Source of the DNA: a virus | Virus genome (UHGV): UHGV-0074586 | Strand: one strand, 5' to 3' | Length of the DNA stretch: 11,801 nucleotides | Shown here: piece by piece, positions 4,550 through 11,801 of the stretch | Numbering within the stretch: position 1 is the first letter of the stretch | How the letters are laid out: every line of letters begins with the position of its first letter | Translations under genes and position numbers: made by a program | The notes under the pieces: generated by a model | The model's database searches: none | Told to the model about the DNA's origin: nothing | What the model saw: the letters and a program-made list of their open reading frames with translations, nothing else

Positions 4550-4653
4550 TGACCATCTACATCACTGAGCTAATAGCAGGGTTATCGTTACTAATGGTTC
4601 TTACTGTATATATTATTAAGTATATTCTTTATGCGAATAAAAAAACTAATTGA
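4549..4653 (+). CDS. 34-aa hydrophobic single-pass peptide, translationally coupled to the helicase stop
   Basis: ATG 4549 overlaps the helicase TGA (4547..4549) with AGGAGG at 4538..4543. Product MTIYITELIAGLSLLMVLTVYIIKYILYANKKTN. Caveat: AT-rich DNA yields hydrophobic ORFs by chance. Confidence 0.3.
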   Translation: MTIYITELIAGLSLLMVLTVYIIKYILYANKKTN

Positions 4654-5242
4654 TCACGATGAGCTTCTGTCAACATTATCATATGACTCAGAAACAGGAA
4701 TATTTAAATGGCTAAAAACAAATTCAGTAGTAAGAGTAAAAGGTAGTATTGCTGGAGGTGTTAGTGGTGGTTATATATGCATTAGCATAAATAATGTTTT
4801 GTATTATGCGCATAGACTTGCTTGGTTCTATGTATACAAAAAATGGCCTCCTAAGTTTATTGATCATGTAAATGGGAACAGACTTGACAATAGGATTTCA
4901 AATCTAAGACTGGCAACAGAAGAGCAGAATGCAAGAAACATTGTAGGGAATAGGTTAAACACATCCGGTGCGATTGGAGTGTCTTGGTATAAGCCAACTG
5001 GCAGGTGGAAGTCTTATGTTGGTTATAAAAATAAGACAATATCGTTAGGGTATTTCGATAGCAAAGAAGATGCAGCATTCATAGCAGCACTAGCAAGAAA
5101 GAAACTATATGGAACTTATGCGAGTAAAGCACTTAATTGCGAGCATGAGCTTTTATCTCAATTTAATAATGATGAGGATAAACTTGCGGAATATCTTAAG
5201 GAAAAATCTAAAAGGACTCGAAAGCGTGTTAAAAAAAGATAA
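4631..5242 (+). CDS. HNH homing-type endonuclease with C-terminal AP2 DNA-binding domain
   Basis: HNH motif (YYAHRLAWF...IDHVNGNRLDNRISNLRLATEEQNARN) and AP2-like segment (GVSWYKPTGRWKSYVGYKNKTISLGYFDSKEDAAFIAA). The gene sits in a visibly AT-rich island unlike its neighbours. Confidence 0.85.
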   Translation: MRIKKLIDHDELLSTLSYDSETGIFKWLKTNSVVRVKGSIAGGVSGGYICISINNVLYYAHRLAWFYVYKKWPPKFIDHVNGNRLDNRISNLRLATEEQNARNIVGNRLNTSGAIGVSWYKPTGRWKSYVGYKNKTISLGYFDSKEDAAFIAALARKKLYGTYASKALNCEHELLSQFNNDEDKLAEYLKEKSKRTRKRVKKR

Positions 5243-7441: not shown

Positions 7442-7626
7442 ACGCCACAATTCAAACGATACCAGAGCTTCTTATCCAGACACGAGGCAATCAGACCGAA
7501 GTGGCGAGGATGCTTTCCTGCGCAAGAGGAACAGTGCTCAAGTACAACCGAGACAGCAAAGGCGAGCTTCACGTAATAGTTAACGGCGTCCTGATGGTCA
7601 AACAGGGCAAGAGGGGAAGACGATGA
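7438..7626 (+). CDS. ninH: NinH
   Basis: 62 aa with the ...GNQTEVARMLSCARGTVLKY...VIVNGVLMV core matching lambda NinH. ATGA overlaps on both sides. Confidence 0.8.
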   Translation: MNATIQTIPELLIQTRGNQTEVARMLSCARGTVLKYNRDSKGELHVIVNGVLMVKQGKRGRR

Positions 7627-8111
7627 GCATAAGAGAACTAAACCTCACCAAAGAGCAGCACGAGTGGCTGAATGGCTGGCTTGAACTGTGGGGCGCATGG
7701 GTTTATTCAGGTCGTCTGGAAAAGCGCATGAGCAGCGTAATAGCGAAGTTCATGGAGAGCGTAGAGCCGGGAAGAGTTATGACAAGGCCAATGTGCAATG
7801 ATGATGATGGAATGTTGATTTCTCAGGTCGTCGATTCCGTCATGTACATTGACAAGAAAGCCTTTGGAATCCTCCTCAGCTACTACGCTCATGGCTCTTC
7901 CAAGCACGCCATTGCATCTTACTATCATCGCGTCGCAAGACCTCGCAAGATGTTATGCCGTGGCGGCGGGCGCATTCAAAAACCATCGCTCGCAACCTGT
8001 CGACGGGAAGTTGACGAAATCCTTAATGCCTCGTTGTTTATGATTTACCCGGTTCTGGATAGTGCGTTTAAAAACCGGAAACGTGTAGAGAAAATTAAAC
8101 ATGTAGCATAG
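7623..8111 (+). CDS. Q-like late-gene antiterminator (non-lambda Q type)
   Basis: 162 aa, last gene before the lysis region. WGAW...RPMCNDDDGMLIS...YYAHG motifs resemble the Q proteins of 933W/82-type phages, not lambda Q. Assigned from memory and position. Confidence 0.65.
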   Translation: MSIRELNLTKEQHEWLNGWLELWGAWVYSGRLEKRMSSVIAKFMESVEPGRVMTRPMCNDDDGMLISQVVDSVMYIDKKAFGILLSYYAHGSSKHAIASYYHRVARPRKMLCRGGGRIQKPSLATCRREVDEILNASLFMIYPVLDSAFKNRKRVEKIKHVA

Positions 8112-8519: not shown

Positions 8520-8548
8520 TTGAAAACGAGTTTTGAAACTGCATAATT
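8520..8548 (+). promoter_or_regulatory. sigma70-like promoter (TTGAAA, 16-bp spacer, CATAAT) preceded by phased A-tracts
   Basis: -35 at 8520..8525, -10 at 8542..8547 with a TG just upstream. The preceding 40 bp holds repeated TGCAAAAA/TTGAAAAC A-tracts at roughly helical phasing (8492..8526). Confidence 0.35.
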
Positions 8549-8630
8549 CCTATATGCTCGGACGTCAAAGGCGAAAGAGCTTACCCACCAGCGAAGATGC
8601 CTTGTGCGGAGCGGTGGGAAACACATTCAA

Positions 8631-8658
8631 GCCCTTGCAGAAATGCAGGGGCTTTTTT
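8631..8658 (+). terminator. strong rho-independent terminator in the leader upstream of the insertion operon
   Basis: 9-bp stem GCCCTTGCA/TGCAGGGGC (one G-U pair) with GAAA tetraloop, then TTTTTT. It lies 30 nt upstream of the first operon ATG and inside the ORF-track 5' extension that starts at TTG 8533. Confidence 0.7.
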
Positions 8659-8688
8659 ATTGGCTCAGTGCCACCAGGTGAACACCGT

Positions 8689-9240
8689 ATGCACACGGCG
8701 ATCATTTGCGCTTCCGGACCTTCCCTCACCCACGACGACTGCCAGAAAGCCATTGGCGCTGGATTACCCGTTATTGCGGTGAATTCTTCATGGCGCGCGG
8801 TGCCGGGATGCTCTCACATTTACGCGGGTGATCTGCGCTGGTGGGATGTGAACATTCCCGCGCTGCCCGATGGCCCCGAACGCTGGTCATGTAACCGGAG
8901 AGCACACACCCGATACGGCGTGAGCCTCTTCCCGACAGATACCAGCGGCACATTCAATTCGGGGCAGAGAGCAATCCTGTTCGCTCACTGGCTGGGTGCC
9001 AGTAGCATCATCCTGCTGGGCTTCGATTGCTCAATCTCAAACGGTAGTCACTGGCACGGCGATCACACAGTCCTCGATAACCCGACAGCAGCGAACGTAA
9101 AGCGCTGGCATGGCGAGTTTGCCCGGGTTGCGGCGCAGCTGCGTGGAAGCGTCAATATCATCAACAGCAGCCGCCAGACGGCGCTTAATTGCTTTCGTCG
9201 CTTACCTCTTGAAGCTGCGATCAGCGAGGTTACATGCTGA
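8689..9240 (+). CDS. hypothetical protein with Cst/GT42-like (DUF115/MptE-like) CMP-ulosonate transferase-fold signatures
   Basis: 183 aa from ATG 8689 (AGGTGA 7 nt upstream). IICASGPSL...PVIAVNSSW and FNSGQRAILFAHWLGASSIILLGFDCSISNGSHWHGDH parallel the GNGPSL, RCN, TSG...LGY...LSGIDFY and SHYIGH motifs of Campylobacter Cst-type sialyltransferases as I recall them. Fold-level inference only. Confidence 0.45.
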   Translation: MHTAIICASGPSLTHDDCQKAIGAGLPVIAVNSSWRAVPGCSHIYAGDLRWWDVNIPALPDGPERWSCNRRAHTRYGVSLFPTDTSGTFNSGQRAILFAHWLGASSIILLGFDCSISNGSHWHGDHTVLDNPTAANVKRWHGEFARVAAQLRGSVNIINSSRQTALNCFRRLPLEAAISEVTC

Positions 9241-10175
9241 ATCCTCCGATTTACATCGATGGCATGCTGGGAATGGGAGATACCATTTACCAGCGCGCTT
9301 TCGTCAAACAACTGCCTGCTGGGACATTCATTAAGACGGCATGGCCGGAGCTTTACGAAGATCTGCCGGTGAAAGTTGTCCGAAGTGACACCACGCTCAG
9401 AACGCAGCGTAAAAATGAGTTTCGCAGTTCGGCAAAGTTTTATCCGCCGCCATCGCCACGACAGACGAAGCGAATATTTTACGGACCGTATGATCTGCGG
9501 CGCGGTTCGATATTTGATGCGATGCGACGCCAGTTCGGCGTAACGCCAGCAGCGCTTGATTTGCCATCCTTTGGCCCGTCGCAGTTTACGCACCAAAAGC
9601 CGATCGCCGTTATCCGTCCGGCAACGGTTCGTTCTGAATGGCGTAGCGACTCCCGAAACCCTGACCCCGATTACCTCCTGCGCGCATCGAGAATCCTGCG
9701 GAAACATTTCTGCGTGATTAGCGTTGCTGATTTGCAGGACGGGGAAGAGTGGCTGGTGGGCGAAGAACCAGAGGCGGATCTGAAAATGCACGCTGGCGAG
9801 CTCAATATCAAAGAGCTGATGCGCCTGGTTGAGCATGCCGCTGTCGTGGTTACGCCTGTTGGCTGGGCGCTGCCCGCTGCCATTGCGTACAAAACACCTG
9901 TTTACGTTGTCGCTGGTGGGCGCGGTGGGCATAACGCTCCCGAGATAGTCACCGATCCGGCGATGGATTTATCCCGCGTTGGCTGGGCAATCCCGGACAA
10001 TTATTGTCGCTGCGAAGCGTGGGATCACCATTGCGACAAACGCATCTTCAACTTTGATTCAAAATTCGAGACATGGCTGAATGAAGTCGTTTTATCAGGA
10101 ACTGAACAGCGGGCTGGTATTCCTCCCGGAGCTGGGCATCGGTCGTTATCCGGTTCCGGCATCACGCCCGTATGA
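9234..10175 (+). CDS. hypothetical protein with glycosyltransferase family 9 (ADP-heptose:LPS heptosyltransferase)-like fold; 3' boundary uncertain
   Basis: ATG overlaps the upstream stop (ATGCTGA). N-terminal IYIDGMLGMGDTIYQRAFVKQL and C-terminal ELNIKELMRLVEHAAVVVTPVGWALPAAIAYKTPVYVVAGG follow the GT9 pattern, but the canonical DTGPMHLAAA motif is replaced by TPVGWALPAAIA. The ORF runs 95 nt into the next gene. Confidence 0.45.
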   Translation: MLNPPIYIDGMLGMGDTIYQRAFVKQLPAGTFIKTAWPELYEDLPVKVVRSDTTLRTQRKNEFRSSAKFYPPPSPRQTKRIFYGPYDLRRGSIFDAMRRQFGVTPAALDLPSFGPSQFTHQKPIAVIRPATVRSEWRSDSRNPDPDYLLRASRILRKHFCVISVADLQDGEEWLVGEEPEADLKMHAGELNIKELMRLVEHAAVVVTPVGWALPAAIAYKTPVYVVAGGRGGHNAPEIVTDPAMDLSRVGWAIPDNYCRCEAWDHHCDKRIFNFDSKFETWLNEVVLSGTEQRAGIPPGAGHRSLSGSGITPV

Positions 10176-10690
10176 CGAGCAGTATTTCGCGAAGTATCAG
10201 CAGCTTGCCGACACCGAAACGGGCAGAGCCTTAACGCAATCCCGTATTGAGCTGGTGGCGCGCCATTTTCACGGTCCTGTTCTCGACGTTGGTATCGGTG
10301 CCGGTCAGTTCGTCTCTACCCGACCGGGAACGCTTGGGTATGACGTTAATCCGGCTGGTATCGCCTGGCTGAACGAGCGGGGCGCATTCGCTGACCTCTA
10401 GTCAGGGGCGCGCGCTGACGATGTGGGATGTCCTGGAGCACATCGACGAGCCGGAGCTGGCGGTACAGCAGGCTACAGAGTTTGTTTTCGTGTCGATCCC
10501 CATTTTTACCGATGCCGGAGACATTCTTCGCTCGCACCATTTCAGGAAGAACGAGCACATCTGGTATTTCACTGACGACGGTATTAAGCGCTGGTTTGCA
10601 GAGCAGGGCTTCGAATGCGCTGAACAGAACACAATCGAATGCCAGTTAGGGCGTAAGGGCGTCGCTTCGTACGCTTTCCGCCGCGTTTAG
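10081..10690 (+). pseudogene. class I SAM-dependent methyltransferase split by a frameshift near 10395..10402
   Basis: ORF 10081..10401 carries motif I (VLDVGIGAGQF) and an acidic beta-2 end (GYDVNP). ORF 10421..10690 in another frame carries the DVLEH motif. The frame upstream of 10421 reads ...SSQGRALTMWDVLEH, so one indel just before the TAG at 10399..10401 would restore a single protein of about 200 aa. Confidence 0.6.
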
Positions 10691-10764
10691 TCCCCTCTTA
10701 GCCCATTGCATTTGGGTTTATTCCAGTTTCGCACACATCACCCGCAAACAGGCGAGGTCAACCT

Positions 10765-10923
10765 ATGAATAGCTCTCACGGGATTTTTGAACAAACCATG
10801 AAATGGATCGCGCTATATCTGCCGTCAGTTTACGCCGGGTTATGCGCTCTGGGCATCTCAGCGCTTATCGACATACGCGCAGGGAAGCCGAAACTCTACA
10901 CCGCCACTGGCGCGCTAAATTAA
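10765..10923 (+). CDS. 52-aa small membrane protein immediately upstream of the holin gene
   Basis: GAGGT at 10754..10758 is 6 nt upstream of ATG 10765. Product MNSSHGIFEQTMKWIALYLPSVYAGLCALGISALIDIRAGKPKLYTATGALN has one predicted TM helix. Its stop coincides with the point where lambda-like sequence resumes. Confidence 0.45.
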   Translation: MNSSHGIFEQTMKWIALYLPSVYAGLCALGISALIDIRAGKPKLYTATGALN

Positions 10924-10954
10924 ATAGAGCAAATCCCCTTATTGTGGGTAAGAC

Positions 10955-11278
10955 ATGAAGATGCCAGAAAAACATGACCTGTTAGCCGCCATTCTCGCGG
11001 CAAAGGAACAAGGCATCGGGGCAATCCTTGCGTTTGCAATGGCGTACCTTCGCGGCAGATATAATGGCGGTGCGTTTACAAAAACAGTAATCGACGCAAC
11101 GATGTGCGCCATTATCGCCTGGTTCATTCGTGACCTTCTCGACTTCGCCGGACTAAGTAGCAATCTCGCTTATATAACGAGCGTGTTCATCGGCTACATC
11201 GGTACTGACTCGATTGGTTCGCTTATCAAACGCTTCGCTGCTAAAAAAGCCGGAGTAGAAGATGGTGGAAATCAATAA
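10955..11278 (+). CDS. S: holin S (S107/S105 dual-start class I holin)
   Basis: 107 aa, essentially lambda S as I recall it. Met1-Lys2-Met3 dual-start motif at 10955..10963 and a CCCC...GGG stem upstream. Confidence 0.95.
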
Positions 11279-11738
11279 TCAACGTAAGGCGTTCCTCGAT
11301 ATGCTGGCGTGGTCAGAGGGAACTGATAACGGACGACAGAAAACCAGAAATCATGGTTATGACGTCATTGTAGGCGGAGAGCTATTCACTGATTACTCTG
11401 ATCACCCTCGCAAACTTGTCACGCTAAATCCGAAACTCAAATCAACAGCCGCCGGACGCTACCAGCTTCTTTCCCGTTGGTGGGATGCCTACCGCAAGCA
11501 GCTTGGCCTGAAAGACTTCTCTCCGAAAAGCCAGGACGCTGTGGCATTGCAACAGATTAAAGAGCGTGGCGCTTTACCGATGATTGACCGCGGTGATATT
11601 CGTCAGGCAATCGACCGTTGCAGCAATATCTGGGCTTCACTGCCGGGCGCTGGTTATGGCCAGTTCGAGCATAAGGCTGACAGCCTGATTGCAAAATTCA
11701 AAGAGGCTGGCGGAACGGTCAGAGAGATTGAGGTATGA
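11262..11738 (+). CDS. R: endolysin R (lytic transglycosylase)
   Basis: 158 aa, essentially lambda R as I recall it ([39 protein letters not shown]...). Start overlaps the end of S as in lambda. Confidence 0.95.
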
Positions 11739-11801
11739 GCAGAGTCACCGCGATTATCTCCGCTCTGGTTATCTGCATCATCGTCTGCCTGTCATGGGCT
11801 G
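11735..11801 (+). CDS. Rz: spanin Rz, 5' partial (runs off the right edge)
   Basis: ATGA overlap with the R stop. N-terminus [22 protein letters not shown] matches the lambda Rz signal-anchor. Confidence 0.85.
   Translation, partial: MSRVTAIISALVICIIVCLSWA

Follow-up and report, generated by a model that had tools for sequence, protein, structure and literature searches.

A probable frameshift in the methyltransferase gene of an accessory glycosyltransferase cassette, beside a native 95-nt gene overlap, in a lambda-like temperate phage

In Pseudomonas phage D3 (orf12 and orf13) and in PAJU2 (gp10 to gp12; PHROGs 4603, 6804, and 6564), a glycosyltransferase-like (GT) gene is followed by an overlapping methyltransferase (MT) gene, and the GT-like proteins share approximately 44 to 47% identity with that encoded in the 11,801-nt stretch of the virus genome UHGV-0074586 analyzed here (the window, position 1 being its first nucleotide). 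In PAJU2, an MptE-like gene lies directly upstream of the GT gene, as it does in the window. The D3 and PAJU2 cassettes are located inside the head-tail morphogenesis module, have a GT/MT overlap of 50 nt, and encode a GT of 275 aa, whereas the cassette in the window occupies a late-operon "moron" slot and has an overlap of 95 nt and a GT of 313 aa. The same GT/MT pair, with a 17-nt overlap, is carried by Mulvp2, an Enterobacter phage, and by Eowyn, a Klebsiella jumbo phage. Overall, the head-tail modules of D3, PAJU2, and Psp6 contain the pair, often with an MptE-like gene, and jumbo phages carry it too. This placement suggests a virion-directed glycosylation system, and the position of the cassette among the head-tail genes of the D3-like phages hints that its target is a virion protein. 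A literature search returned nothing specific on the MptE-like/GT/MT cassette.

Within Escherichia coli, strains I3 (NZ_CP195969.1: WP_112023844.1, WP_437599056.1, and WP_112023842.1) and 730V1 (NZ_CP061764.1) carry the same three genes as the window, in the same order and in the same position after the antiterminator gene, with DNA identities to the window of 99.5% and 94.6%, respectively, and both have the 95-nt GT/MT overlap. The MT gene of I3 and 730V1 is uninterrupted and encodes 204 aa, whereas that of the window is split, and downstream of the cassette these strains have a complete 110-aa holin and a GH19 endolysin, whereas the window has a holin remnant and lambda S and R. At the level of predicted structure, the 313-aa protein appears to share the GT-B fold of TibC and other bacterial autotransporter heptosyltransferases and of the GT9 lipopolysaccharide heptosyltransferases WaaC and WaaF, but it has only 11 to 17% sequence identity to TibC and GT9 proteins and is shorter than TibC, the iron-containing protein heptosyltransferase of ETEC. 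The split MT gene itself resembles the frameshifted and nonsense accessory-gene pseudogenes of resident prophages in having a private, out-of-frame lesion in an otherwise conserved gene, and it is distinctive only in the unexplained contig breaks found at the lesion nucleotide.

The window covers the region from replication to lysis of a lambda/HK620/mEpX2-like temperate phage of the Enterobacteriaceae, with 96 to 98% identity to those phages over 50 to 65% of its length, and comparable mosaics are present in thousands of E. coli genomes, while the exact source of the window sequence was not found in any collection searched. A block of approximately 2.3 kb that has no counterpart in the reference phages lies 3' of sites resembling a late promoter and terminator and contains the three cassette genes and the 52-aa holin remnant (Table 1). 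These two sites (8520 to 8654) form a pR'/tR'-like arrangement just 5' of the cassette and, by analogy with lambda, may function in that way. A TTG-initiated ORF listed from 8533 (8533 to 9240) over-extends across the terminator and includes both the promoter-like site and the hairpin; the true start of cassette gene 1 is probably the ATG at 8689, giving the 183 aa annotated in its homologues. Downstream, the holin remnant is a piece of the holin that comes after the cassette in I3-type phages. It is joined to the region upstream of lambda S at a recombination junction at about 10918 to 10936 (similarity to the relative L001 stops at 10918), and this junction is common to many public contigs (61 blocks in the index). 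Many public contigs carry a gene call for an antisense ORF of 289 aa within the GT-like gene (9063 to 9932, minus strand), which had no family match and is probably spurious. In the nin region, a free-standing HNH_3/AP2-type endonuclease ORF of 203 aa was observed (4631 to 5242), and the number and position of such HNH genes vary among the relatives.

Table 1. Features of the late-operon accessory cassette and its surroundings (window coordinates)
Feature	Position	Strand	Evidence or description
Antiterminator Q gene	7623-8111		Pfam Phage_antitermQ, 8.8e-25
Late promoter-like site, TTGAAA-16-CATAAT	8520-8547	+	Consensus scan
Intrinsic terminator-like hairpin with T-run	8629-8654	+	Consensus scan
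Cassette gene 1, MptE-like/DUF115-type, 183 aa	8689-9240	+	PHROG 4603, 9.2e-49
Cassette gene 2, intact, 313 aa, candidate glycosyltransferase (GT-B, GT9/TibC-like)	9234-10175	+	PHROG 6804, 1.7e-110
GT/MT overlap, 95 nt	10081-10175	+	MT ATG inside GT codons CTG-AAT-GAA (W-L-N-E)
MT N-terminal fragment, 106 aa plus TAG	10081-10401	+	Motif I VLDVGIGAGQ, GYDVNP, and FAD segments
MT lesion, 5 nt (ACGCC) missing plus T>G	10399-10406	+	Alignment to intact copies
MT C-terminal remainder, +1 frame	10400-10690	+	First ATG 10421, 89 aa; TxWDxLEHI and rest of fold
Holin remnant, 52 aa, N-terminal	10765-10923	+	PHROG 126 holin, 0.0058
Lambda-type holin S	10955-11278	+	Pfam Phage_holin_3_1 on identical relatives
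Lambda-type endolysin R	11262-11738	+	ORF call

The three cassette proteins were compared with protein family, structure, and defense system collections. Cassette gene 1 scored 30.9 bits against Pfam MptE-like, under the cut-off of 34.6, and its PHROG carries the label "alpha-2,3-sialyltransferase" in PHROGs. The 313-aa GT protein had no match in Pfam (including Glyco_transf_9), in NCBIfam, or in PDB sequence searches. Its AF2 model (pLDDT 92.6, pTM 0.90) gave TibC (4rb4/4rap) as the best Foldseek match, with an E value of 3e-10 and a TMq of approximately 0.6, and the further top matches were a Veillonella GT9 protein, WaaF (4e-6), and WaaC; the label "GT9-like" thus applies to the modeled fold. 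A Cys/His cluster of this protein (C258-x-C260-x4-H265-x-C267) was invariant in 68 homologues. Proteins of 501 to 504 aa in which MptE and GT are fused exist (P0077, P0086, and P0093), which indicates that the MptE-like and GT-like proteins are functionally linked. PDB sequence and NCBIfam searches gave no match for any of the three proteins, nor did the PADLOC defense models, and plasmids gave no match. The cassette probably serves a glycosylation accompanied by methylation of the sugar or acceptor, with its products made late in infection.

The GT ORF runs 95 nt past the MT ATG at 10081, as had been stated in the original prediction, while the preceding junction of the cassette is an overlap of 7 nt (9234/9240) and the nin genes overlap by 1 to 4 nt. 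The prediction had taken this as a possible sign of another indel toward the 3' end of the GT gene, and it named a GT stop close to 10081 in a corrected sequence as part of an outcome that would refute it. Such an event could appear to be favored by the distant family members, whose GT proteins are mostly 275 to 293 aa long and whose GT genes overlap the MT gene by only 17 to 50 nt (D3, PAJU2, and Psp6, 50 nt each; Mulvp2 and Eowyn, 17 nt each). However, the same 95-nt overlap was found in all 38 related loci, down to approximately 80% DNA identity, and the 313-aa GT protein of the window matched that of relatives whose cassette is intact (e.g., L021) at 100% identity; among relatives of at least 80% identity, GT lengths were mostly 308 to 313 aa. 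Apart from D14C, as annotated, and the Synechococcus phage, every lineage examined had the MT start inside the GT ORF. In D3, PAJU2, Psp6, Mulvp2, and Eowyn, the MT ATG fell within the last conserved GT residues (...F-x-x-W-L-N), and the frame relation at this W-L-N/ATG junction in Mulvp2 and Eowyn was that of the window. Because the junction frame is unchanged in these two phages, the longer GT tail reflects the lack of an early stop in that frame and not a shift. A second indel as the origin of the overlap is therefore refuted for the window, and the refuting outcome of a GT stop near 10081 does not apply, the overlap being native.

Between the window and relatives of approximately 80% identity, 7 to 9 of 10 to 11 substitutions within the overlap were at third codon positions of the MT gene, and residue changes numbered 1 to 2 of 31 in the MT protein versus 10 to 11 of 31 in the GT tail. 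In the AF2 model, GT residues 290 to 313 had pLDDT values below 60. The substitution pattern together with this low-confidence tail indicates that the tail is an unconstrained read-on and that it is the MT frame that constrains the overlap, and the last 29 or so GT residues are probably disordered. The GT stop codon, TGA, is formed by conserved MT codons, TAT-GAC (Tyr-Asp). From the sequence arrangement, the overlapping GT and MT genes may be packed for coupled translation.

Membership of the MT in a known family was clear for the intact homologue, which matched Pfam Methyltransf_23 at 40.4 bits (cut-off, 27) and PHROG 6564 at 1.2e-81 over positions 3 to 204. When the two pieces encoded in the window were compared with Methyltransf_23, the C-terminal fragment scored 26.9 bits (positions 87 to 163), just under the cut-off, and the N-terminal fragment gave no match. 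The marks of a class I SAM-dependent methyltransferase were present, namely VLDVGIGAGQ (the glycine-rich motif I), GYDVNP, and FAD-L-Y. In the family alignment, G71, G73, G75, D88, D105, and Y107 were invariant, and the conserved G and D residues are presumably SAM contacts, judging from what is generally known of this fold. The window has no continuous frame through the Rossmann-like fold. The MT ATG at 10081 opens an ORF of 106 codons that stops at the TAG at 10399 to 10401, and the remainder is in the +1 frame ((10421-10081) mod 3 = 1) up to 10690. The runs GGGG (10405 to 10408) and CGCGCGC (10409 to 10415) come after the TAG. The MT motifs in two frames, the TAG, and the two adjoining runs had all been named in the original prediction and were all found in the sequence.

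Nine complete E. coli genomes with the cassette were identified, and five were fetched for alignment; in all five, the GT-like gene was 942 nt and the MT gene was 615 nt. Compared with strain I3, the MT gene of the window had only two differences: 5 nt were missing, and T was replaced by G at 10406. Alignment to the five intact E. coli prophage copies showed that the deleted sequence is ACGCC (equivalently, CGCCA), lost between 10399 and 10401. Over positions 8640 to 11801, the only changes private to the window relative to its nine nearest relatives were 9761C, the deletion, 10406G, and 11336A. When ACGCC was put back, a single ORF for a 204-aa MT was obtained, whose only difference from the common E. 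coli protein (P0001; 101 public contigs) was W111G, and CTCTACGCCAGTCAG(G/T)GG across 10390 to 10410 is the corresponding intact-length reading. Y107, which does not vary within the family, is lost with the deleted bases, and the frame changes immediately ahead of the conserved TxWDxLEHI segment. Alignment with intact homologues, which the original prediction had named as a way to locate its indels, yielded the one in the MT gene and none in the GT gene. Slippage at a homopolymer or GC run, which that prediction implied, was rejected as the cause, since the deletion lies outside and ahead of both runs and the GGGG run itself arises from the T>G change at 10406. A template switch at a quasi-palindrome found no support, as the CTGAC...GTCAG hairpin was not improved by either change and the fold energies were similar (-22.6 versus -23.2 kcal/mol). 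Insertion of an IS or intron at the break was rejected, no foreign bases being found on the flanking contigs.

We next determined how often the deletion allele and other MT lesions occur. The 38 related loci, drawn from E. coli genomes, draft genomes, metagenome contigs, and IMG/VR contigs, all had CTCTACGCCAGTCAGTGGCG at the lesion site. Zero exact matches to the deletion allele were found in one-genome-per-species contigs, IMG/VR, or JGI metagenomes, and a looser pattern allowing 0 to 4 bases also found none; the intact allele, used as a positive control for the pattern scan, was present in 11 IMG/VR contigs. No collection searched yielded another contiguous copy of this allele. IMG/VR was also searched for an intact-length allele carrying 10406G, and none was found. 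Other, independent lesions of the MT gene were encountered in at least two further lineages. A nonsense change, W96* (TGG>TAG), was present in five assemblies (L015 to L019, i.e., GCA_050028575.1 and four Logan assemblies), and the GT gene was intact in L015 and L018, the two of these loci that were translated. A 1-nt deletion at MT codon 43 was found in L037 (IMGVR_UViG_2869462744_000017; L037:3106-3306). These independent lesions elsewhere demonstrate that natural loss of the MT recurs in prophages.

We considered whether the deletion is real, whether it is an artefact of assembly, and whether the split gene could still yield an active enzyme. We favor, with modest confidence, a real, private, and inactivating deletion in the late-operon accessory cassette that leaves the MT as a pseudogene and the overlap as native; the deletion would then be present in the source DNA, and the truncated MT would be inactive. 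In principle, an active MT could still come from a programmed +1 shift of the ribosome at CUC-UAG, or from halves made separately, given that the +1 frame containing the downstream part is open from 10400 and that a shift at the stop would produce a nearly full-length protein. We regard this as very improbable. The two-frame layout was found in none of the 38 relatives, all of which encode one ORF at the site, so the site is not conserved. GAC-CUC-UAG-UCA offers no re-pairing option, CUC-UAG-U is not a known shift-prone motif, there is no Shine-Dalgarno-like stimulator upstream of the site, and the local RNA fold did not exceed shuffled sequence in stability (z = -1.06). A shifted product would also be without the invariant Y107, and the ATG at 10421, from which a separate second half would start, has no evident ribosome-binding site. 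Assembly is a more serious concern. If the source DNA were of intact length, alone or in a mixture, a wrong or minority path or the joining of contig ends could have produced a false 5-nt deletion, and the original prediction had likewise allowed for either a partly decayed cassette or indel errors. The one indel near 10400 leaves both explanations live, while the second indel that it had considered possible in the GT gene is dropped. Two MEGAHIT metagenome assemblies that share the window marker 9761C, ERZ914886 (run ERR589762, PRJEB6997) and ERZ27262435, are both split at the lesion, with one contig ending in ...GACCTCTA (10400) and the next starting with AGTCAGGGGCG (10400), so that the abutting contigs have nothing but the A at 10400 in common. 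In the common lineage (9761T), two Logan contigs (SRR21291512 and DRR771930) stop at ...CTCT, one base before this break. In all, contigs from four metagenome assemblies of two lineages end or start at the deletion point (L011 to L014, L054, and L055). Contig ends at arbitrary codons are not a common background, because look-ups of products starting at 10403, 10409, 10276, and 10282 returned no contigs. Together with the lack of any second sighting of the deletion allele in the collections scanned, and with the presence of a 5-nt deletion and a substitution 7 nt apart, which a faulty consensus or a wrongly chosen path could have left behind, these breaks lend the artefact some weight.

The same breaks can be read the other way. 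They mean that read evidence at 10400 is ambiguous or mixed in assemblies of the window's lineage, and ends with just one A in common are the expected outcome of a de Bruijn bubble between CTCT-A-GTCAGGGG and CTCT-A-CGCC-A-GTCAGGGG, in which case the deletion allele would truly be in the reads. This suggests that the deleted and intact-length alleles are both present in the ERZ914886 and ERZ27262435 samples, where the population could have been mixed or a single genome could have carried two copies of the prophage. Short contigs for the bubble branch carrying the deletion (products from 10276 and 10282) were not on record, possibly because of length filters. Short-read errors seldom give 5-nt deletions outside repeats, and two further assemblies of the window's lineage carry 10406G independently. 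The window had 0 indels and 1 mismatch relative to an independent MEGAHIT contig over 6,320 nt, and no further indel relative to its nearest relatives over 8640 to 11801, so a generally error-prone assembly is unlikely. Loss of the MT has, moreover, demonstrably occurred in other lineages. We therefore consider an artefact possible, although unlikely. A further reading, that 10399/10400 is a site of recurrent, site-specific heterogeneity (e.g., nuclease targeted or unstable) that switches the MT off within phage populations, was raised by the contigs of four assemblies that end or start there and by the three independent MT lesions; we find it improbable. A real deletion accordingly remains the preferred reading, and the MT allele, in a phage cassette that is annotated but uncharacterized, is best described as either an ordinary private pseudogene or a local error of assembly.

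Taken together, these observations fit the following arrangement. Three accessory genes, encoding an MptE-like protein, a TibC/GT9-like candidate glycosyltransferase, and a class I SAM methyltransferase, are situated between a putative Q-dependent late promoter/terminator and the lysis genes. The MT start lies inside the last conserved GT residues, W-L-N-E, with the GT frame of the enterobacterial lineage free of stops for 95 nt more, and the resulting read-on of approximately 29 GT residues is native, with no indel needed. In the window sequence, the MT gene lacks 5 nt after codon 106, with an adjacent T>G change, and translation would end at the TAG, just before Y107 and ahead of both the TxWDxLEHI strand and the fold's C-terminal half. 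Because translation would end ahead of these elements, the MT would be a pseudogene, beside which the two transferase-like genes remain intact.

For annotation, the MT at 10081 to 10690 should be recorded as a frameshifted pseudogene, or the 5 nt should be checked in the reads, and the 95-nt GT/MT overlap should be left as it is, as native. The cassette of MptE-like, TibC/GT9-like, and MT proteins is widespread and uncharacterized, which gives it a mild wider interest, and it occurs in two settings: within virion-assembly modules, as in D3-like phages and jumbo phages, and in the moron slot of the late operon, as in enterobacterial prophages. The repeated loss of the MT only suggests that the MT is the dispensable member of the cassette in the prophage state.
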